DNA of 64,000 nucleotides from Aquificota bacterium (GCA_030549905.1 JAUQQK010000007.1:2612-66611), one strand, 5' to 3'; numbered from the stretch's first letter, positions 1,102 to 37,459 are shown. Numbers and translations: made by a program. The notes: generated by a model from the sequence alone, not told the origin.

Positions 1102-1928
1102 GCCACGCCCTCCGTAAGGTTTTGTTTTTCTTTGAGGATAGCCCAGCAGGCTTGAGCCATATGGTATATGAGCCTATCCACTAAATCCGCATTGCCATAA
1201 GCAGAAAATTGCAGGTCTTCAAACCTACCCTCAAGGATAAGGTCATCTGATGTGATGGGCTTTGTATGGAAGATAAAACCCTCAGGTAAATAGCACTTGT
1301 CTGGAAGGGCTTCATTACCCTCAAAGGCTCTAACAACATTAAAGAAGCTCTTATAAGCTGTCTGCAGGTCAGGGGTTAAGACCTTTACATAGCCAGCCCC
1401 GTTTTTCACAAAAACAGCCAGAGCCTTATCGTCTAACAGGAAAAGCCTGAGGTCTGAAAAGCCTTTGCCTTCTAAAGACTTAAGAAACTCCTTAAACCTG
1501 CTCAGGTCTTCTTTCTTCATGAAGCCCTCAATAAGCTCATCCACATAAACAGGCTCAGGCATGCTTACCTTAGCCCATGCCTTAACTATAAACCTTTCCT
1601 TTGCATATCTTTCATAATCCTTCCTGCTTGCCAAAAGCCCGCCGTCCGTTTCTCTGTGAAATCTTTCATACCCTTCCTTGTCTGTGAGGTAGATGGTAGA
1701 GTGCCAGAAGTAATAACCACCATCTACAAGCCACCGCCTAAACTCATCATTACACAAAGCCAAAAACCTAAGCCCCGTCCTTTGCCTTAGATAGTGTCCT
1801 ATCTTGTTTAAAAAGGCATGGAAAAAGCCCGCCCCGTCTTCAAAAACTGAGGGCATAAACCCTTCCTTAAACTTCTTCACCAGTTTGCTGTCCTTATAGA
1901 TTTCACAGCCACCAAAATATAGCCTCAT
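1098..1928 (-). CDS. Hypothetical protein (276 aa), E1 orphan; a candidate replication protein by position only
   Basis: This is the largest ORF of E1 apart from the integrase. It lies on the same strand and in the same operon as the flanking orphans, next to the iteron block. I recognise no catalytic motif. Confidence 0.6.
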   Translation of the reverse strand: MRLYFGGCEIYKDSKLVKKFKEGFMPSVFEDGAGFFHAFLNKIGHYLRQRTGLRFLALCNDEFRRWLVDGGYYFWHSTIYLTDKEGYERFHRETDGGLLASRKDYERYAKERFIVKAWAKVSMPEPVYVDELIEGFMKKEDLSRFKEFLKSLEGKGFSDLRLFLLDDKALAVFVKNGAGYVKVLTPDLQTAYKSFFNVVRAFEGNEALPDKCYLPEGFIFHTKPITSDDLILEGRFEDLQFSAYGNADLVDRLIYHMAQACWAILKEKQNLTEGVA

Positions 1929-1988
1929 CTTAATACCTCCTTCATGGTTTTTAAAAGGCAGGCATAAGCCCTGCCCTTGTTTGCCTTT

Positions 1989-2363
1989 TCATGCAACCGC
2001 CTCCTCAAGCTTTGGAAGGCTGTCCTCAAGCAAGCCAATAACAGCCCTGACAAGCTCCTTAATCCTGTCTTCCTTTGCTTGTAGCCTCTGGTATTCCTCA
2101 AACAAAACCCTAACCTTCTCATCTCTTATGGCTCTTGCCCCAGCCTCACCACCAAAATTTTTGATGTTGCCTAAAGACCTCCACGCCTTTTTACCATTGC
2201 CTAAGGACTTCCACACATACAGGTATCTGTTGCCATTGATTTCCTTAATGCTGTAGCCCTTGAGGCTCATCAGATATGCAAGGCTCTTTTTCCTTTCCTG
2301 CAGGGCATTAAGCTCATGCCTAAGCTCTTCCATCCACCTGTCTAAGGTCTGCAGTTCCTTCAT
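1989..2363 (-). CDS. Hypothetical coiled-coil protein (124 aa from ATG 2363), E1
   Basis: AGGAGG (complement of 2371-2376) lies 7 nt upstream of the ATG at 2363. The longer ORF starting at 2396 lacks an RBS. A C-terminal relic of a homolog (EEYQ.L.K...) occurs in E2 at about 35540-35662. Confidence 0.6.
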   Translation of the reverse strand: MKELQTLDRWMEELRHELNALQERKKSLAYLMSLKGYSIKEINGNRYLYVWKSLGNGKKAWRSLGNIKNFGGEAGARAIRDEKVRVLFEEYQRLQAKEDRIKELVRAVIGLLEDSLPKLEEAVA

Positions 2364-2403
2364 GGCTAAACCTCCTTTGAGGGTTTTCATAGACATAATT
2401 ATA

Positions 2404-2424
2404 TGACATTTTTTGAAAATGTCA
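2404..2424. promoter_or_regulatory. Perfect palindrome TGACATTTT-TTG-AAAATGTCA, a candidate operator
   Basis: The 9-bp arms were read directly. The site lies in the divergent intergenic region between the 1989-2363 gene and the RHH gene. Confidence 0.5.
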
Positions 2425-2451
2425 AGTAGGAAACGGCTATATTTTTACCTC

Positions 2452-2480
2452 TTGACTTTACGGCTTGTATATGCTATATT
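2452..2480 (+). promoter_or_regulatory. Sigma70-like promoter for the RHH gene (TTGACT-17-TATATT)
   Basis: The -35 box is at 2452-2457 and the -10 box at 2475-2480. The ATG at 2487 is only 6 nt after the -10 box, which implies a leaderless or near-leaderless mRNA. Confidence 0.45.
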
Positions 2481-2486
2481 CAAGTC

Positions 2487-2681
2487 ATGGGCAGGATAGC
2501 AGGAAGAAAAGGGTTAAGTGTTAAGCTCCAACTTTCCAAGCTAACCACCAAGCTACCCACTGAGCTATATGAATGGCTACACCAGAAAAGTGAGCAGGAA
2601 GGCAAGACTATAAGCCTCATCCTCACTGAAATACTTGAAAAGGCTAAGCAGGAAGAGGAAGCCCAGCAGGGTGGTAAGTGA
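2487..2681 (+). CDS. Ribbon-helix-helix (CopG/Arc-like) DNA-binding protein
   Basis: This 64-aa ORF has a beta strand and two helices in the RHH pattern (KLTTKLPTELYEWL...GKTISLILTEILEKA). A homolog occurs in E2 at 35726-35917. Confidence 0.65.
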   Translation: MGRIAGRKGLSVKLQLSKLTTKLPTELYEWLHQKSEQEGKTISLILTEILEKAKQEEEAQQGGK

Positions 2682-2923
2682 TGGAAGGGCTAAAGAAAAG
2701 GCTTGAGATTGAGCATGACAGATTTAAGGTCTTCCTGTCTATAGCCTCTCTTGTAATTGGTGGTGTTATAGGTCTATTGTTCAAGGAGAAGGATACAATT
2801 ACCAGCGTTCTTATAGTTTTGGGCATAATACTGGCATTGTTCAGTTTTGGTCTATCCGTTAGTTCTTTCCTGAAGGTTAATAGGCTATTAAAATCTTTGG
2901 AGGAGGTGAGCAAGGATGTTTGA
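2678..2923 (+). CDS. Small membrane protein (81 aa, 2 TM)
   Basis: The ORF has two hydrophobic helices and overlaps the RHH stop codon. It has the same architecture as the E2 ORF at 35926-36156. Confidence 0.55.
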   Translation: MMEGLKKRLEIEHDRFKVFLSIASLVIGGVIGLLFKEKDTITSVLIVLGIILALFSFGLSVSSFLKVNRLLKSLEEVSKDV

Positions 2924-3053
2924 GCTAATTGCAGTCATCATATTAGGCATTATTGTCATAGGTGCATTTGGCATAATGCTTTATGAAGAAATGAAGCCCC
3001 TGCCCTATGAGAAGGACAAGGACAAAAAGCCCCAGACTAATAAGCCGTCATGA
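2916..3053 (+). CDS. Tiny membrane protein (45 aa, 1 TM)
   Basis: The product is MFELIAVIILGIIVIGAFGIMLYEE... followed by a lysine-rich tail. A GGAGG-type RBS lies at 2901-2907 and the start overlaps the preceding ORF. Confidence 0.4.
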   Translation: MFELIAVIILGIIVIGAFGIMLYEEMKPLPYEKDKDKKPQTNKPS

Positions 3054-5669: not shown

Positions 5670-6337
5670 AGGATGTGGTATTTTACGATTTTGTTAGGGG
5701 TCCTCTTCTCAAATTTGCCCTTTTCGTATTTTTTGCTGGTATAAGCTACAGGTTCTTTAGAGTGGTATTTTTAGGCTTACCAGCTGACTACGCCAAACCC
5801 AAAGGAAACCCTTACCTTATGGCTGTAAAGAAGATAATAATAAAACCCACAATGGGATGGACCTTTAATGAGATATTTTCAAGAAGAGCCATAAACTTCA
5901 TAGGAGGCTTTCTTTTCCATCTTGGCTTCCTTGGTCTCACCTTCTTTGTGCCCGCCCATGCCCTTCTATGGAAAGAAATAATAGGTATAAGCCTTCCAGT
6001 AATGCCAAGCCTTATAGTAGATATACTGACTTATTCAGCTCTTGGCTCTTTGATAGCTCTGACCCTTCATAGAGCTTTAAACCCTGTCCTAAAGCTTCTA
6101 ACGGGAAAGGATGAGTATTTTGCCAACCTACTCGTAGCTCTAATCCTTTTTACAGGCCTTTTAGCAAACAAGTGGGCGGGCGGTGGCTTATACATATGGC
6201 TCCTGTCCATGCATATGCTACTGGCTGACCTTCTTATACTCTATATCCCTTTCAGCAGGCTTTCCCATTTTGTCTATTACTTCCTTTCTGTAGGCTTCAT
6301 GGGATGGAACGCAGGCAAGAGAGGAGTATCCTTCTGA
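5666..6337 (+). CDS. isp1: Isp1-type membrane b-cytochrome-like subunit (NarI/DsrM/HdrE-like)
   Basis: This 223-aa ORF starts at the ATG at 5666, has about five TM helices, and sits between the hydrogenase subunit genes as in Hyn/Isp operons. Confidence 0.75.
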   Translation: MKDVVFYDFVRGPLLKFALFVFFAGISYRFFRVVFLGLPADYAKPKGNPYLMAVKKIIIKPTMGWTFNEIFSRRAINFIGGFLFHLGFLGLTFFVPAHALLWKEIIGISLPVMPSLIVDILTYSALGSLIALTLHRALNPVLKLLTGKDEYFANLLVALILFTGLLANKWAGGGLYIWLLSMHMLLADLLILYIPFSRLSHFVYYFLSVGFMGWNAGKRGVSF

Positions 6338-6349
6338 GGAGGTCAAGGT

Positions 6350-7657
6350 ATGGTGGAGTTCAAAGAGCAGATAGGGCGGACAGAGATAGAGAAGTTTTAC
6401 GAATTCTGTAAAAAAGGCATCAACATGGAGGTGGCTTCTTACCTTGAAGCCTGTGTAAGGTGCGGAATATGTGCGGAGGCTTGTCTTTTCTACATGGGAG
6501 AAAACATATCTGGAAGGATCGACCCAACCTTAACACCTGCCTATAAGGCAGACCTTCTGAGGGATATATACAGGGAAAACTACACAATAATTGGTAGAAT
6601 AAAAAAGCTGTTAGGTTTGGGTGTAAAGATAAAGCCTGAGGATTTAAAAGAGCAAATAAAGCTTGCCTTTTATACCTGCACCATGTGCGATAGATGCACA
6701 AAAGCCTGCCCCATGGGAATAGATACCCCTAAGCTTGTAAGCATAGTAAGGGGTGCATTAACCTACGCAGGTCTGACGCCGAAAGACCTGGCGGACGCTA
6801 CAAACCTCTCTTTAGAGAAGGGGAGCCCTCTTGGTGTCGACACTCAAACCTTCCTTAAAAGGCTTGAGTTCATATCAGAAGAGTATGAAGTGGATATTCC
6901 TGTAGATAAAAAACCTGCTGAATATCTATATCTGCCTTCCTCCATAGAGCTTATGAAGTTCCCTTCCTCCGTAGCCTCTGCGGTAAAGGTGTTAAACAAA
7001 TCTGGAGTTAGCTGGAGTATGTCTACAAAAGCCCATGAGGCAACAAACTTTGGAATTTTTGCCCAGAGCAAGGAGGCCACTAAGGAGATGCTTTCAAGAG
7101 TTTTAGAAGGTGCGAAGGAGCTTGACGTTAAATATATAATAGCACCAGAATGCGGGCATGCATATCAATCCATGAGATTTATAGCACCAAACTTATTCCC
7201 AGAAGAATGGAACTTTGAAGTGCTTAACATAGTGGAGTTCATAGATAGAATGGTAGAAACGGGACGCCTCAGTATAAACAGAAAGGTCCTTATGGAGAAA
7301 AGCACCCTTCACGACTCCTGCCAGATAGGTAGAAGGGGAGGTGTTCTGAAGGAGCCAAGAAGAATACTTGGCATGCTTGCGGAAGATTTTAGAGATTCCG
7401 TGCTCATACCGGAGCATAACATATGCTGTGGGGGCGGTGGCGGTGTGCTTGTAATAAAAGATGCGGATTATTACAGACAGAAGGCGTTTTTGTCCAAGAT
7501 GACGCTCTTTGACAAGGTGGGAGCCAAAACGGTAGTCTGTTATTGTGCTAACTGCATGCTGGCTCTTAACACGGGAGCTAAAGAGCTAAACAGGGATTAC
7601 AGATTTGTAAGCATAGTGGAGCTTGTGGCAGAAGCTATAGAGGAGGGAGAGGAATGA
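6350..7657 (+). CDS. isp2: Isp2-type Fe-S protein (HdrD/DsrK-like)
   Basis: Two ferredoxin-type motifs (CVRCGICAEAC, CTMCDRCTKACP) and a CCG-domain motif (HNICCGGGGG) are present. Confidence 0.85.
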   Translation: MVEFKEQIGRTEIEKFYEFCKKGINMEVASYLEACVRCGICAEACLFYMGENISGRIDPTLTPAYKADLLRDIYRENYTIIGRIKKLLGLGVKIKPEDLKEQIKLAFYTCTMCDRCTKACPMGIDTPKLVSIVRGALTYAGLTPKDLADATNLSLEKGSPLGVDTQTFLKRLEFISEEYEVDIPVDKKPAEYLYLPSSIELMKFPSSVASAVKVLNKSGVSWSMSTKAHEATNFGIFAQSKEATKEMLSRVLEGAKELDVKYIIAPECGHAYQSMRFIAPNLFPEEWNFEVLNIVEFIDRMVETGRLSINRKVLMEKSTLHDSCQIGRRGGVLKEPRRILGMLAEDFRDSVLIPEHNICCGGGGGVLVIKDADYYRQKAFLSKMTLFDKVGAKTVVCYCANCMLALNTGAKELNRDYRFVSIVELVAEAIEEGEE

Positions 7658-24566: not shown

Positions 24567-24595
24567 TTGACTTGATTAACTTGTTGATATATAAT
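24567..24595 (+). promoter_or_regulatory. Near-consensus sigma70 promoter (TTGACT-17-TATAAT) for the first fccB-like gene
   Basis: The -35 box is at 24567-24572 and the -10 box at 24590-24595. GGAGG lies at 24616-24620, 6 nt before the ATG at 24627. Confidence 0.55.
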
Positions 24596-24626
24596 CCTAA
24601 TCAAATCCTTTGAAGGGAGGTTGAAA

Positions 24627-25946
24627 ATGCTTAGCAGAAGAGACCTTTTAAAATCCGCAGGAGTAGGGGCTTTAGCCTTGGGCGTTTCTTCACAGCCCGT
24701 TTTCGCCGCTGCCGAGAAGGTGGTGAAGATGGACGCCATGCTTCCACCGCCAAAGGGCAACAGGGTTGTAATATGCGGTGGTGGATGGGCTGGGCTGACA
24801 GTAGCCAAGTACCTCAAGAAGGAAAACCCAAACATAGAGGTTATCCTTATTGAGAAGAGGCCAAACTTCTTCTCCTGCCCCATATCCAATCAGTGGCTAG
24901 CAGACCTTGTGAGCTTGGATTTTCTTTCCCATGACTACAACCAGCCAGCTTCCAAGTATGGCTACAAGTTTATAAACGCAGTGGTCATAGGCATAGAAAG
25001 GGACAAAAAGAGGGTCTATACTCCCCACGGCTACATAGAATACAACTACCTGGTGCTTGCACCCGGCATAAAGTACAACTATAAGGCTTGGTTTGGAGAC
25101 AACAAGGACATGATAAACTACACCAGAGTGCATTATCCAGCGGCATTCATACCAGGTTCTGAACACTTGGCCTTGAAGAGAAAGGTTCATGAGTTTGAAG
25201 AGGGAGACTTTATAATCACCGTACCTCCGGGAGCCTACAGATGCCCACCAGCGCCTTATGAGAGGGCTTGCATGATAGCAGAAGTCTTTAAGAGAAACAA
25301 GGTAAAGGGAAGGGTAATCATACTTGACCCCAAGGATGACATAGCTCCAAAGGGTCCAGGCTTTAGGGCAGCTTATGAGCAGGTTTATCTTGGTATAGTG
25401 GAGTATGTGCCGAAGGCAAGCATAAAAGAGGTGGACCCTGTAAAGAAGATAATAAAGACCACTGCGGGAGACTTTAAGTTTGCCGATGCCAACCTTGTGC
25501 CACCACACCAGGCGGGAGAGCTTGTTTGGATGGCAGACCTTATAGCAAAGGACAAGGATGGTAAGCCTACCGGCTGGGCAGACCAAGACCCTCTAACCTT
25601 CCAAGCAAAATCCGACCCCAATGTCTTTTTGGTGGGAGATGTTATAGGTGGAGTGCCTTATCCAAAGAGCGGACATATGGGCAACTCGCAAGGTAAGATA
25701 GTGGCAAAGATAATTGCCTCAAGGATAGCTGGCAAAGAATACAAGCCCACTCTTCCAGACAACACTTGCTACTCCATGGTGAACGGATCGCCTCAGGAAG
25801 CTATAGTTATAAACGTGACCTACGATTACAACGAGAAGGAAAAGAAAATAACTCCAAAGCCAAAGGTGATAAACGAAAGATCCGAAGCCTTGGCAAAGGC
25901 TACCTATGAATGGGCAAGGTCTATGTATAAGGACATGTTTGCATAA
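24627..25946 (+). CDS. fccB: Flavocytochrome-c-sulfide-dehydrogenase-type flavoprotein (FccB/SoxF-like), Tat-exported, paralog 1
   Basis: The product has a Tat signal (SRRDLLK), an FAD Rossmann motif (VVICGGGWAG), FFSCPISN (the position of the covalent-FAD Cys in FCSD), and redox cysteines in YRCPPAPYERA and NTCYSMV. Confidence 0.8.
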   Translation: MLSRRDLLKSAGVGALALGVSSQPVFAAAEKVVKMDAMLPPPKGNRVVICGGGWAGLTVAKYLKKENPNIEVILIEKRPNFFSCPISNQWLADLVSLDFLSHDYNQPASKYGYKFINAVVIGIERDKKRVYTPHGYIEYNYLVLAPGIKYNYKAWFGDNKDMINYTRVHYPAAFIPGSEHLALKRKVHEFEEGDFIITVPPGAYRCPPAPYERACMIAEVFKRNKVKGRVIILDPKDDIAPKGPGFRAAYEQVYLGIVEYVPKASIKEVDPVKKIIKTTAGDFKFADANLVPPHQAGELVWMADLIAKDKDGKPTGWADQDPLTFQAKSDPNVFLVGDVIGGVPYPKSGHMGNSQGKIVAKIIASRIAGKEYKPTLPDNTCYSMVNGSPQEAIVINVTYDYNEKEKKITPKPKVINERSEALAKATYEWARSMYKDMFA

Positions 25947-25950
25947 TCTT

Positions 25951-25975
25951 AAGGGGGCTTTGCCCCCTATTTGCA
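25951..25975 (+). terminator. Rho-independent terminator after fccB paralog 1
   Basis: A GGGGGC-TTT-GCCCCC hairpin (25953-25967) is followed by TATTTG. Confidence 0.6.
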
Positions 25976-25978
25976 TCA

Positions 25979-25992
25979 CATGTTGCAACATG
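25979..25992. promoter_or_regulatory. Perfect 14-bp palindrome CATGTTGCAACATG
   Basis: The palindrome was read directly. It lies between the terminator and the Rieske gene. Confidence 0.4.
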
Positions 25993-26044
25993 AAACACGC
26001 TTGCTAATACTCAACTAAAGCATATAAGCCTTCCAGAACATGGC

Positions 26045-26057
26045 ATGCAATTTGCAT
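26045..26057. promoter_or_regulatory. Palindrome ATGCAA-T-TTGCAT overlapping a putative -10 region
   Basis: The palindrome was read directly, 25 nt upstream of the ATG at 26082. A TTTGCAT half-site also occurs at 25970-25976. Confidence 0.4.
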
Positions 26058-26081
26058 ATATACACAACGAGGTGAATAGGA

Positions 26082-26801
26082 ATGGATAGAAGAGACTTTA
26101 TAAAAACCTGCGGCACTGTAGCAGTAGCCTCTATGTTGGATGCCAGTATTTTCTCCAATTTGCTGGCAAGCCAACAGGATGGAATGCTAAAAACTTACAA
26201 AAAGGCCCTCCTTGTCAAAGAGGATGGATCTCCCATAAAGGAGGGAGACATAAAGCCCCATAACAATTACATATTCTTCTATCCCTTTGTTTCCACTCCT
26301 TGTTATCTTCTTAATCTGGACCAGGAGATAAAGCCTGTGGAGATAAAGCTAAAGGATGGGCTTGGCTACCTCTGGCCAGGGGGCGTGGGGTCAAAAAAGA
26401 GTATAGTAGCCTACTCTGCCATATGCGCCCACCAGTGGAGTTATCCTACAAAGGACTACTCTTTTATAAACTACTATCCACCAGACAAGCCATCTGAGAC
26501 CACAAAAAAGGCCGGTATAATCCAGTGTTGTGCCCACTTAGGTTTATACGACCCAAAGGAAGGTGCAAAGGTCTTAGATGGTCCCCCAGAGGTTCCTTTG
26601 GCCTCCATAGTGCTACAAGAAGAGAATGGCCAATTTTATGCCGTGGGAGTTCTTGGTGAGGACCAGTTTGACCAGTTCTTTGATAACTACAAGGCAGACC
26701 TAAGACAGCAGTATGGCTCTACTGCAAAAGCAAAGGAGCTTGTGGAAAAATGTATAGTTATGGAGGTGGATAAATATGTCAAATCAGTTATCAGGTGTTA
26801 G
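26082..26801 (+). CDS. Tat-exported Rieske-like [2Fe-2S] protein
   Basis: The product has a Tat signal (DRRDFIKTCG). CAH (ICAHQW) and CCAH (QCCAHLGLYD) are separated by 31 residues, which fits CxH...CxxH followed by an aromatic-Asp. Confidence 0.65.
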   Translation: MDRRDFIKTCGTVAVASMLDASIFSNLLASQQDGMLKTYKKALLVKEDGSPIKEGDIKPHNNYIFFYPFVSTPCYLLNLDQEIKPVEIKLKDGLGYLWPGGVGSKKSIVAYSAICAHQWSYPTKDYSFINYYPPDKPSETTKKAGIIQCCAHLGLYDPKEGAKVLDGPPEVPLASIVLQEENGQFYAVGVLGEDQFDQFFDNYKADLRQQYGSTAKAKELVEKCIVMEVDKYVKSVIRC

Positions 26802-28032
26802 TAGAAGGGAATTGATCGTAGGTGGTGCCCTTGTAGGTATTACTGCACCTCTTTTTGTATATTCAAAGGCACAAAATAGGCTTAAAGCTCAAGTGGTTAT
26901 AGTAGGTGGTGGCTATGGCGGTGTTACAGTAGCCAAGTATTTAAAGAAGGAAAATCCTAACCTTGATGTGGTCCTTATTGAAGAAAGGCCCTTCTTTATG
27001 TCCTGTCCCATGTCAAACCACTTTTTGGCTGGCCTTATGGAGCTTACGCCTCTGTGCTTTTCTTACAACGTGCTTGAGGTGAAGTATGGCATAAGGGTAA
27101 TAAACGATAAGGTGCTGGGAGTGGAGCTTGATAGAAAAGCGGTGAGAACTTCCGCAGGATATATAGGATACGACTATCTGGTTCTTTCCACGGGTATAGA
27201 CTATGACATTGAGGACAAGCCCTTCTATGCGGAGTCCATAGTTCATAACCCCCCTGCCTTCAAGCCCGGCTCTGAGCATATATACCTCAAAAGGCTCATA
27301 GAAGACTTTGAGGGTGGCGATATAGTGATTAGCGTGCCACCTCCTCCCTACAGATGCCCGCCAGCCCCCTATGAGCGTGCAGCTCTCATAGCCAGTATGA
27401 TAAAAAGAAACAAGCTAAAAGCTCATATATACTTTATCGATGCCAACGAGAGACCCATAATAAACGCAGAGGGCTTTTTATCCGCATACTACGACCTTTA
27501 CAAGGACGTGGCAGATTACATAACCTCCGCACAGGTAAGGGATATAGATGTGCATAAGAGAGTGGTAAGGACCTCCCACGGGGATTTTAAATATGACCTT
27601 GCCTGCATCATACCACCCATGAGGGCAAGCAGGCTTCTGGAAGAGGCGGGACTTTTGAAAAGGGGTCAGAAGTGGGTAGAGGTAAACCCCTTCACCTTTG
27701 AAACGTATGTAAGAAACGTTTTCGTTATAGGCGACTCCGCCCAGACATACTTACCAAAGAGCGGATACGCTGCACATTCGCAGGGCAAACTACTTGCAAA
27801 GCTTATAAACGCAAGGCTGAAGGGGAAAGAAGTTAAGGAGGAGTATGTGCAGATGATATGCTATGCCATGGTGAGCGATAAGGAAGCCATAATGACAGAA
27901 ACCGCCTTTAGATACGACACGGCAAGCAAAAGGTTCATACCCACCCACAGGGAGGACAATCAAAGAAAGGAAACCACCGCAAAAAGATACGAAGAGTGGG
28001 CAAAGGGTCTATGGAGGGACTTGTTTGGATAA
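26776..28032 (+). CDS. fccB: FccB/SoxF-like flavoprotein, Tat-exported, paralog 2
   Basis: The product has a Tat-like SRRELIV, VVIVGGGYGG, FMSCPMSN, YRCPPAPYERA and MICYAMV. The start overlaps the Rieske gene by 26 nt. Confidence 0.8.
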   Translation: MSNQLSGVSRRELIVGGALVGITAPLFVYSKAQNRLKAQVVIVGGGYGGVTVAKYLKKENPNLDVVLIEERPFFMSCPMSNHFLAGLMELTPLCFSYNVLEVKYGIRVINDKVLGVELDRKAVRTSAGYIGYDYLVLSTGIDYDIEDKPFYAESIVHNPPAFKPGSEHIYLKRLIEDFEGGDIVISVPPPPYRCPPAPYERAALIASMIKRNKLKAHIYFIDANERPIINAEGFLSAYYDLYKDVADYITSAQVRDIDVHKRVVRTSHGDFKYDLACIIPPMRASRLLEEAGLLKRGQKWVEVNPFTFETYVRNVFVIGDSAQTYLPKSGYAAHSQGKLLAKLINARLKGKEVKEEYVQMICYAMVSDKEAIMTETAFRYDTASKRFIPTHREDNQRKETTAKRYEEWAKGLWRDLFG

Positions 28033-36484: not shown

Positions 36485-37459
36485 ATGAAAAGGTTTGCAG
36501 TGCTTGGTTTGTCTGGCATAGCCTTTGCACAGCCAGTCATTGAGCCGAACTTTGCGGACAGGCTCTTCCCGTATGTGGCATACAGAGAGGTCTGGACGGG
36601 CACGCCCGCAAGGGTAGAAAATGCAACAGTGCCAAACACCCTTGTGGTCTACGGAGCGGGGGAAGACCCGGAGGTGGTGGCAGTAGCTGGCAGGATTGCC
36701 TACTATCTGGGTCAGTGGACGGAAGACATAGGCTTTACTGCAGAGGATGTAAAGCAGTCCCGCATGCCAGAGCTTCTGATAAGCGATAGAAGGCTAAAGG
36801 ATATAGGCTGGCAGAACATTATAGTAGTGGGCACAAACAACGAAGTGGTGAGGGAACTGGGTCTTAAGTTTGAAAAGCCTACGATAAAGCTCGTGCAAAA
36901 GGACGGCAAAAACATACTTATTGTAGGCGGTGCCAGTAAGGAACAGGTGCTTCAGGCGGGCAGGTATTTAGCGGATGTGAGGCTAAACTTCAAGGCTGGC
37001 GCCTATAAGACCTTCTTCTCTTTTGTGGCTCTTAGAGGGTATATAGAAAAGGGTGAATTTGATGCGGCACTCAGGCTCATAAAGAGTCCATCAGGTATTT
37101 CCGCCTGCGGTAAAAATATGGCACTGGCTGGACCAATGGTAGCCCAGTGGAGCGACGACCTTAAGGCTGTTGTAAGGCAGAGGAATAACATACTCTACAA
37201 TGAGCTTCCCAAGGCTCTTGGTGTAAGGGACAAGGATAAAGCCGTTAGCCTCTGGAAGGAAGCCATGCAAACCTGCTATCAGTGCCATCAGGGCATAGGC
37301 GTGCCTCAGGTGAGGAAGTTTATACCCCTTGAAGGCATACATGCCAGACACCAGCAGATAGCGGAAAGCTTCGGTCTTGTAAAGGTGCTCGGAAACCAGA
37401 AGTCCTGCGTAGCCTGTCATGCGGGCAGTACGCAGATAAGAGGCTACTCCCAGAAGTAA
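36485..37459 (+). CDS. Secreted diheme c-type cytochrome with a large non-heme N-terminal domain
   Basis: The product has a signal peptide (AFA/QP) and two CxxCH motifs in the last 70 aa (CYQCH, CVACH). I recognise no family for the first ~200 aa. Confidence 0.65.
   Translation: MKRFAVLGLSGIAFAQPVIEPNFADRLFPYVAYREVWTGTPARVENATVPNTLVVYGAGEDPEVVAVAGRIAYYLGQWTEDIGFTAEDVKQSRMPELLISDRRLKDIGWQNIIVVGTNNEVVRELGLKFEKPTIKLVQKDGKNILIVGGASKEQVLQAGRYLADVRLNFKAGAYKTFFSFVALRGYIEKGEFDAALRLIKSPSGISACGKNMALAGPMVAQWSDDLKAVVRQRNNILYNELPKALGVRDKDKAVSLWKEAMQTCYQCHQGIGVPQVRKFIPLEGIHARHQQIAESFGLVKVLGNQKSCVACHAGSTQIRGYSQK

Follow-up and report, generated by a model that had tools for sequence, protein, structure and literature searches.

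We analysed a 64,000-nucleotide stretch of DNA from an Aquificota bacterium (GCA_030549905.1, JAUQQK010000007.1:2612-66611), hereafter the window, and focused on a cluster of three genes in which two flavoproteins that belong to the family of flavocytochrome c sulfide dehydrogenase (FCSD) flank a Rieske-type protein. Our results make it rather probable that this cluster specifies a periplasmic FCSD-type flavoprotein that uses a Rieske [2Fe-2S] protein in place of the cytochrome subunit FccA. In this hot-spring bacterium, the + strand between 24621 and 28032 carries three co-directional open reading frames (ORFs), each of them with a twin-arginine translocation (Tat) signal:

24627-25946, + strand: par1, predicted Tat-exported flavoprotein of the FCSD family, 439 aa
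26082-26801, + strand: predicted Tat-exported Rieske-type [2Fe-2S] protein, 239 aa, ligands C115, H117, C149 and H152
26776-28032, + strand: par2, predicted Tat-exported flavoprotein of the FCSD family, 418 aa

A first-pass annotation, made from the sequence alone, had already described three Tat-signal ORFs here, with two FccB-type flavoproteins flanking a Rieske-like protein, and we recovered all three at the same positions. The overlap of 26 nt that it reported between the Rieske ORF and par2 is exact, the ATG of par2 lying inside the 3' end of the Rieske ORF. For par1, the ORF lister chose the TTG at 24621, which gives 441 aa; the ATG at 24627 is the likelier start, as it lies 7 nt past a GGGAGG Shine-Dalgarno sequence and yields 439 aa, the length of a relative that is 98% identical (L001). 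The proteins of the window are ~98% identical to those of the metagenome-assembled genome (MAG) Candidatus Pampinifervens sinense, of the family Aquificaceae.

The twin-arginine motifs SRRDLLK, DRRDFIK and SRRELI stand at the N-termini of the three products. The Tat profile TIGR01409 (cut-off 16.7 bits) gave 20.0 bits for par1 and a marginal 16.8 bits for the Rieske protein; no match to it was listed for par2, whose signal consists of SRRELI followed by a hydrophobic stretch. Export of all three proteins via Tat is predicted.

Family and catalytic residues of the flavoproteins

Both flavoproteins exceeded the cut-offs of the FCSD profiles. FCSD_central (PF21706, cut-off 27 bits) scored 102 bits in par1 and 88.6 bits in par2, and the flavin-binding profile FCSD-flav_bind (PF09242, cut-off 26 bits), a search that the first-pass annotation had proposed, scored 39.9 and 27.6 bits; Pyr_redox_2 (PF07992) was also above its cut-off in the two proteins. 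The best relatives of solved structure were 5N1T, 3VRD and 1FCD, with E-values of 1e-49 to 1e-53 for par1 and 1e-55 to 1e-57 for par2, while the sulfide:quinone reductases (SQR) were far weaker matches (1e-9 to 1e-15).

Each protein has an N-terminal Rossmann motif for flavin adenine dinucleotide (FAD), and the motifs FFSCPISN / FMSCPMSN, YRCPPAPYERA and TCYSMV / ICYAMV (par1 / par2) align with the covalent-FAD Cys, the redox Cys pair and the Glu of 1FCD, 3VRD and 5N1T. Equivalents of C42, C161, C337 and E167 of the Allochromatium vinosum protein are all aligned in par1 and par2, the Glu being part of the PYER motif. The FccB hallmarks recognised in the first pass, namely the FAD-Cys, both redox Cys and the Rossmann motif, are in this way confirmed by profiles and by alignment to solved FCSD structures. 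The redox pair is C194/C362 in par2, with an aligned pair in par1, and FAD is probably attached covalently through C77 of par2 and the aligned Cys of par1. When we examined 65 relatives from syntenic loci (22 downstream-type and 43 upstream-type), the FAD-Cys, the redox Cys pair and the Glu were kept throughout, with the only exception of a change of the FAD-Cys to Gly in 6 upstream-type proteins. By sequence, par1 and par2 are FCSD-family flavoproteins, and they share 39.8% identity with each other.

The 239-aa Rieske protein

The Tat signal and the CxH...CxxH pattern noted in the first pass are present in the 239-aa protein. Its ligand boxes, ICAHQW and QCCAHLGLYD, provide C115-x-H117 and C149-x-x-H152, and the spacer from H117 to C149 counts 31 residues. 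A check against Rieske profiles, also proposed earlier, gave a divided answer: Pfam PF00355 reached 15.3 bits, under its cut-off of 20.3, but the NCBIfam model SoxL2 (TIGR03171) reached 92 bits (cut-off 582) and the arsenite oxidase small-subunit model arsenite_ox_S (TIGR02694) 35.1 bits (cut-off 95.65). A precomputed PF00355 match is present in several close homologues.

Besides the Sulfolobus Rieske protein SoxF (1JM1, E 7e-7), a phmmer search of the PDB sequences retrieved several chains of AioB and the Rieske protein of Thermus. When aligned with 1JM1, CAH falls on CVH and CCAH on CPCH, so that all four ligands match, and the gap of 31 residues between the boxes matches SoxF nearly residue for residue. 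The spacer had been called unusually long; it is instead of the length found in archaeal Rieske proteins of the SoxF/SoxL2 type. C115, H117 and C149 are invariant in 61 homologues. We also compared an AlphaFold2 model, built on 61 homologues (mean predicted local distance difference test score 89.6), with the PDB using Foldseek. The top 13 matches were all Rieske proteins (AioB, SoxF and the Thermus protein, E 1e-8 to 2e-6), the best being AioB, with a target-normalised TM-score of 0.77-0.82; BphA3 (2E4Q) appeared at rank 50. Both the similarity to the Rieske fold and the alignment of the ligands, on which the first-pass annotation had let its reading depend, hold, and by sequence and modelled fold the 239-aa protein is a true Rieske-fold protein.

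The protein lacks the Cys residues of the canonical loop-to-loop disulfide. The boxes read CAHQWS and CCAH, and neither of the two canonical positions, the one after box 1 and the third of box 2, is occupied by Cys. On the other hand, C150, which lies beside the ligand C149, and C239, the last residue, are each at least 90% conserved, and they covary: both are Cys in 62 sequences, Ser150 is accompanied by a terminal Tyr in 19, and the CNSH and CKAH variants are likewise without the terminal Cys. This pattern suggests an alternative stabilising disulfide between C150 and C239 that would tether the C-terminus to the cluster loop.

The conservation of the C-terminal Cys could be read in another way, namely that the Rieske fold has ceased to carry electrons and now acts as an assembly or export chaperone, or as a sulfur carrier via that Cys. 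The sub-threshold Pfam score and an orphan Burkholderiales branch, in which the second His is lost or shifted, would agree with such a role. We nevertheless consider it very improbable, since neither this protein nor any flavoprotein-linked member lacks one of the four canonical ligands, the model matches AioB and SoxF with confidence, and the covariation of the C-terminal Cys with C150 fits a structural disulfide better than a carrier function.

An identity as arsenite oxidase was considered and rejected. No gene for a molybdopterin large subunit was found beside the Rieske gene, whose neighbours are flavoprotein and housekeeping genes, and the TIGR02694 score is far below the cut-off. Many metagenome homologues bear the automatic name 'arsenite oxidase small subunit' (e.g., P0045, P0076, P0090, P0092 and P0093); with flavoproteins as neighbours and a TIGR02694 score under the cut-off, such a name is likely a systematic mis-annotation.

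Conservation of the flavoprotein-Rieske pairing

A pattern scan with one genome per species detected relatives of the Rieske protein in at least 577 genomes, and the best 80 loci were kept; their ORFs were called and compared by BLAST with the three proteins of the window. In the Aquificota and Campylobacterota, all loci whose upstream contig is intact have an FCSD-like gene next to the Rieske gene, except L051; in L011 and L016 the contig end cuts the locus and no adjoining flavoprotein was seen. The survey of gene neighbourhoods, which had been set as a test of the pairing, therefore found it conserved across both phyla.

Three arrangements were observed. In the Aquificaceae a par1-type flavoprotein gene is followed by the Rieske gene and usually then by a par2-type gene. 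The order in the Hydrogenothermaceae is a cytochrome c of ~100 aa, a classical FccB-type flavoprotein, the Rieske protein, a par2-type flavoprotein, and then soxX and soxY (assigned by Pfam). In the Campylobacterota (Sulfurimonas, Sulfurovum, Sulfuricurvum and relatives) there is one flavoprotein gene, the Rieske gene and then a gene for a secreted CxxCH protein of ~135 aa. The Hydrogenothermaceae order can be read as a pair of adjoining modules, each with an acceptor gene ahead of a flavoprotein gene, and no other genomic hint points as directly to the Rieske protein serving par2 as FccA serves FccB.

The Campylobacterota gene for the ~135-aa protein lies directly 3' of the Rieske gene (in L038, L039, L043, L045, L047, L048, L050, L059, L060, L064, L067, L074, L076, L078 and L080). 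Its product has a Sec signal and ends in ...QCTSCHIRIR(S/N)(Y/W). It gave only a weak, sub-threshold match to the Pfam model for cytochrome c', and no significant match among the sequences of solved structures; its features resemble those of a monohaem cytochrome c of a class II-like kind. These loci qualify the earlier claim that the flavoproteins have no cytochrome c partner. At the locus itself the claim stands, as the ORF scan of the 64-kb window gave no CxxCH ORF in or adjoining the cluster, but in the Campylobacterota relatives a gene of this monohaem kind follows the Rieske gene.

The overlap between the Rieske and par2-type genes measures 26 nt in 21 of 23 loci, which belong to two families, and this argues for translational coupling of the two genes. 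Whether the canonical ligand set is kept goes together with the presence of an adjoining flavoprotein gene. About 25 loci of Burkholderiales and other Proteobacteria (L037, L040, L041, L049, L052-L054, L056-L058, L061-L063, L065-L066, L068-L073, L075, L077 and L079) hold an orphan Rieske homologue between a NUDIX-like and an aat-like gene, and exactly these members have an altered second box, CC(S/A)(E/D)(H/K/R), with the His shifted or lost, whereas the CxxH box is kept exactly in the flavoprotein-linked members. The aat-like gene of the orphan loci resembles those for Leu/Phe-tRNA-protein transferase.

Insertions between the flavoprotein and Rieske genes were seen in a few loci: soxY and soxZ in a Sulfurovum MAG (L039, 7115-7948), and, in two MAGs of Aquificaceae (L013, 6939-7952, and L014), a multicopper oxidase with two domains. 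Among the best 150 of 846 matches in a library of 1.84 billion proteins, we found no natural fusion of flavoprotein and Rieske protein; the longer matches in this search were gene-call artefacts with unrelated domains.

Phylogeny of the flavoproteins and choice of partner

We built a neighbour-joining tree of 80 sequences with 100 bootstraps and two SQR outgroups. It included the three solved FccB proteins and the SoxF of Paracoccus denitrificans (as partial sequences), two homologues from Paracoccus alcaliphilus and one from Allomeiothermus. FccB, SoxF, the cytochrome-linked P. alcaliphilus protein and the upstream gene of the Hydrogenothermaceae formed a classical, cytochrome-linked clade in 99 of 100 bootstraps, and this clade excludes par1 and par2. 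The phylogenetic placement called for in the first pass thus puts both paralogs outside the classical FccB/SoxF clade. The par2-type, or downstream, proteins grouped in 98 of 100 bootstraps, while par1 fell inside the Aquificaceae group of genes upstream of the Rieske gene, with the upstream genes of other Aquificota and of the Campylobacterota as next neighbours.

The Rieske-linked and classical proteins also differ at individual positions. The penultimate residue (par1 440, par2 417) is Phe in 98% of the Rieske-linked flavoproteins and Trp in 7 of the 8 classical FccB/SoxF proteins with data. Further differences are Ser against Thr before the FAD-Cys, Tyr against Phe at par2 143 and Glu against Gln at par2 167. 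Such clade-specific residues are candidate determinants of partner choice.

As to which flavoprotein pairs with the Rieske protein, par2 is absent, between unchanged flanks (TlpA-like and argJ-like genes), from four Aquificaceae loci (L005, L008, L015 and L017); the par2-less loci include that of Ca. Pampinifervens yunnanense, the sister species of the window organism. Since the gene is missing in L005 and L008 despite the same flanks, par2 appears as a variable accessory gene within the genus. The gap between the par1 and Rieske genes is of only 9-56 nt in many Aquificaceae relatives, and in the Campylobacterota the single upstream flavoprotein, which in several cases groups with par1, is the sole neighbour of the Rieske gene. 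The par1 type is the most widely conserved Rieske neighbour. For these reasons the stand-alone role that the first-pass annotation had considered for par1 is unlikely, and the par2-less Aquificaceae together with the short gaps point to the par1 type as a Rieske partner in its own right. Conversely, L021 and those Hydrogenothermaceae loci that have a classical upstream gene indicate that a par2-type protein suffices as partner.

Two members of the non-classical clade lie in a different setting. In L081, on the Allomeiothermus silvanus plasmid pMESIL01 (flavoprotein at 1718-3013), the order is rhodanese, flavoprotein, soxC and cytochrome c, next to soxCD; in L082, on a plasmid of P. alcaliphilus (flavoprotein at 5824-7155), it is YeeE, flavoprotein, soxY and soxZ. 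These contexts hint at a link between the non-classical clade and Sox-carrier chemistry.

A different substrate could be considered on such grounds: the module would act on sulfur bound to the Sox carrier, either oxidising or mobilising SoxY-bound sulfane sulfur or reactivating SoxYZ, with the Rieske protein as electron outlet. In Paracoccus and Chlorobaculum, SoxF has a stimulating effect on the Sox system, and besides the neighbours of the P. alcaliphilus gene (soxYZ) and of the Allomeiothermus gene (soxCD), the inserted soxY and soxZ of the Sulfurovum locus and the Hydrogenothermaceae cluster, which runs directly into soxX and soxY, speak for this proposal. We judge it improbable all the same. 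Most of the Aquificaceae and Sulfurimonas loci are without an adjoining sox gene, the full FCSD catalytic residue set is kept, and no sox gene was found in the window. There, tblastn with SoxX, SoxY, SoxZ and three cytochrome queries gave no match, and the search for Sox, SQR and cytochrome genes returned nothing beyond a weak cross-match of SQR to par1.

Comparison with known systems

One of the closest counterparts of the cluster is the flavocytochrome FccAB (A. vinosum 1FCD, Thermochromatium tepidum 3VRD, Thioalkalivibrio paradoxus 5N1T). Its flavoprotein has the same fold and domains as par1 and par2, and shares with them the Cys for 8-alpha-S-cysteinyl FAD, the redox Cys pair, the active-site Glu and export via Tat. 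The layout, in which the gene of the acceptor stands directly upstream of that of the flavoprotein, is common to FccAB and to the Rieske-par2 pair, but here the Rieske gene occupies the position of the FccA cytochrome gene, and an FccA gene was not found at the locus. As described above, par1 and par2 fall outside the clade of FccB and SoxF and differ from it in signature residues (Ser for Thr, Glu for Gln at par2 167, Phe for Trp).

On the side of the Rieske protein, the best structural match is AioB (1G8J/1G8K, 4AAY, 8RTL). AioB, a Rieske subunit exported via Tat, serves a periplasmic enzyme as its electron exit to cytochrome c, which it reduces, and some AioB proteins likewise lack the canonical disulfide. 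Its partner, however, is a molybdopterin subunit with a [3Fe-4S] cluster, in place of the flavoprotein found here; the sequence identity is only 20-22%, and the 239-aa protein has ~70 extra residues, which form a beta region at the N-terminus and, at the C-terminus, a helical tail that ends in Cys. Closest by sequence are Sulfolobus SoxF (1JM1) and SoxL2 (TIGR03171), which have the same inter-box loop of ~30 residues. These archaeal proteins are subunits of membrane-bound, quinol-oxidising Rieske/cytochrome b complexes, whereas the cytochrome b gene is absent here.

Electron transfer from FAD to a Rieske cluster is known in the pair BphA4-BphA3, whose flavoprotein belongs to the same superfamily. 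There too, a flavoprotein with two dinucleotide-binding domains exchanges single electrons directly with a Rieske-type cluster. That pair is cytoplasmic and NADH-driven; its flavin supplies electrons to a Rieske ferredoxin of low potential, from which they reach an oxygenase, with no sulfur chemistry and no export.

SoxF of Paracoccus and DhsU1 of LSSB are periplasmic flavoproteins of the FCSD family, as is predicted for par1 and par2, and they can reduce cytochrome c with sulfide. Tamazawa et al. (2012) drew the gene order cytochrome-dhsU1-Rieske-dhsU2-soxXYZAB for a Sulfurihydrogenibium-like bacterium (PMC3504083), so that the DhsU1 cluster carries the same Rieske and par2-type genes as the window. 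In that work, recombinant DhsU1 was a monomeric sulfide:cytochrome c reductase, the Rieske gene was left uninterpreted and DhsU2 was given no assay (PMC3504083). A review stated that Sulfurimonas genomes lack flavocytochrome c (FCC) genes (PMC4584964); many of the Sulfurimonas MAGs among our loci carry operons for a flavoprotein, a Rieske protein and a cytochrome.

Our full-text searches brought up no flavoprotein-Rieske sulfide dehydrogenase that has been characterised, papers on Aquifex Rieske proteins behind paywalls being outside their reach, and the work of Tamazawa et al. was the only one among the papers searched to show the arrangement. The first-pass annotation knew of no characterised example of the combination. 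The gene order itself, however, had been drawn by 2012 (PMC3504083), and the Rieske protein has relatives in the at least 577 genomes mentioned. Our results describe the pairing as genuine and widespread, and as a variant, so far uncharacterised, of a familiar type of enzyme, not as a categorically new system.

Weighing of the evidence and proposed mechanism

Several observations weigh against a flavoprotein that delivers its electrons to the Rieske protein. All three proteins have separate Tat signals and could act separately. When produced recombinantly, the DhsU1 of a syntenic cluster works by itself, as a monomer, with horse-heart cytochrome c (PMC3504083). L051, a Sulfuricurvum locus, has the Rieske and cytochrome genes but no flavoprotein, and flavoproteins of the same clade occur without a Rieske neighbour in Allomeiothermus silvanus and P. 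alcaliphilus. The joint clade of Rieske-linked flavoproteins, which also takes in two Sox-linked outsiders and is sister to the classical clade, is found in only 68 of 100 bootstraps. To these are added the sub-threshold PF00355 score and the missing canonical disulfide of the Rieske protein.

On the strength of the first four of these points, the flavoproteins could be independent, monomeric sulfide:cytochrome c reductases similar to SoxF and DhsU, with the Rieske protein as a diffusible periplasmic carrier or as part of some other pathway, and with no FccAB-like complex. We find this doubtful, although it is the least improbable of the alternatives. By synteny, DhsU1 is not of the par1 or par2 type: as with SoxF, its gene belongs to the classical clade and adjoins a cytochrome gene of its own, which lies upstream (soxE or fccA-like genes play this part, unlike the situation of par1 and par2). 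The conserved translational overlap of the Rieske and par2-type genes, the near-universal adjacency of flavoprotein and Rieske genes in two phyla, and the restriction of the canonical ligand set to loci where a flavoprotein adjoins all speak against this alternative.

We thus favour an FCSD-type flavoprotein with a Rieske protein in the place of FccA. The first-pass annotation had proposed a dehydrogenase with a Rieske subunit as electron acceptor; the identity of the Rieske protein, its ligands, the synteny and the non-classical clade bear this out, while the bypass of cytochrome c that it implied is unlikely. The scheme that we infer covers the loading of cofactors, the formation of a complex, the substrate, the direction of electron flow and the identity of the cytochrome acceptor. 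The three proteins would fold and take up their cofactors in the cytoplasm before export via Tat. In the periplasm, sulfide would attack the redox-active Cys pair of either flavoprotein (C194/C362 in par2, the aligned pair in par1), and two electrons would pass to the FAD bound, probably covalently, at C77 of par2 or its par1 equivalent. The His-ligated Rieske cluster would then reoxidise the flavin in one-electron steps and reduce soluble c-type cytochromes that feed a terminal oxidase. Because a monohaem cytochrome gene stands right after the Rieske gene in the Campylobacterota, cytochrome c is the likely next acceptor and is probably not bypassed; the Campylobacterota would encode a dedicated acceptor there, while in the window organism it would be encoded elsewhere.

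Within this scheme par2, being translationally coupled to the Rieske gene, would be the closest stoichiometric partner of the Rieske protein in this organism. Since its type is the sole Rieske neighbour in other lineages, par1 is probably a second catalytic partner, under different regulation (a sigma-70-like promoter, against a sigma-54-like one for Rieske-par2).

A broader proposal follows the same lines, and we regard its chances as evenly balanced. It holds that sulfide dehydrogenases come in a third design, next to SQR and flavocytochrome c, of which the cluster is an example: a sulfide:cytochrome c oxidoreductase of 'flavo-Rieske' type, whose FCSD-like flavoprotein has as its obligate one-electron outlet a Rieske protein that is similar to AioB and archaeal SoxF and is stabilised by the C150-C239 disulfide. 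Under this proposal the enzyme would be widespread among Aquificota and Campylobacterota and would have escaped notice there, or have been mis-annotated as 'arsenite oxidase small subunit'.

Aquificota and Campylobacterota are the dominant sulfur oxidisers of hot springs and vents, and their sulfide oxidation drives primary production there. Genome-based studies score sulfide oxidation by the markers SQR and FccAB; if the cluster encodes a working sulfide dehydrogenase, searches based on FccA miss the flavoprotein-Rieske module. It would also be a third context for respiratory-type Rieske proteins, beside the Rieske/cytochrome b complexes and arsenite oxidase, and would bear on how the ancient Rieske module was recruited. 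The cluster is present in the cultured thermophiles Thermocrinis albus, Hydrogenobacter and Sulfurihydrogenibium yellowstonense, and for this reason the proteins should be stable and easy to test.

Candidate regulatory elements

Four candidate elements were recognised around par1 and in the 135-nt spacer between par1 and the Rieske gene:

24567-24595, + strand: sigma-70-like promoter match TTGACT-17-TATAAT upstream of par1, agreeing at 11 of 12 positions
25953-25967, + strand: GC hairpin GGGGGC-TTT-GCCCCC directly 3' of the par1 stop
25972-25987, + strand: imperfect palindrome TGCATCACATGTTGCA, putative site for an enhancer-binding protein
26041-26056, + strand: sigma-54-type match TGGCAT-N5-TTGCA, TGGCATGCAATTTGCA, with the exact -24/-12 pattern, 26 nt 5' of the Rieske ATG

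The first two bear on the earlier claim that par1 has its own promoter and terminator. The sigma-70-like element is a match to consensus only, in a region with no more such matches than shuffled sequence. The position of the hairpin is kept in L001, L002, L004, L006, L007 and L008, with an altered stem sequence, but its T-tract is weak and the terminator scan gave no call.

The palindrome lies ~55 nt upstream of the sigma-54-type match. It is conserved in L001, L004, L006, L007 and L008, and is perfect (TGCAACATATGTTGCA) in L007; the sigma-54-type match is kept in the same five relatives, all of them with a long spacer, and both elements are absent where the genes abut. This shared conservation with the long spacer suggests that Rieske-par2 may be under enhancer-dependent control, separate from par1. 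In the whole window there are 2 sigma-54-type matches against 0.22 expected. The second, at 36514, could have tied the ORF at 36485-37459 to the cluster, but it was set aside as a probable chance match, because it lies inside the signal-peptide codons of that ORF, downstream of a good ribosome-binding site. No gene for a sigma-54 activator with the GAFTGA motif was found in the window.

Surroundings of the locus

The cluster is flanked upstream, on the minus strand, by housekeeping genes (ilvB/ilvN-like genes and a leucyl aminopeptidase-like gene), and downstream by an L35-like gene, a TlpA-type thioredoxin gene and an argJ-like gene. The ORF at 36485-37459 (+ strand), 8.5 kb from the cluster and among housekeeping genes, is the sole ORF of the window with two CxxCH motifs. 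It encodes a predicted secreted protein of 324 aa with the signal MKRFAVLGLSGIAFA and no significant Pfam family; both motifs stand near its C-terminus, and it is a possible novel dihaem c-type cytochrome.

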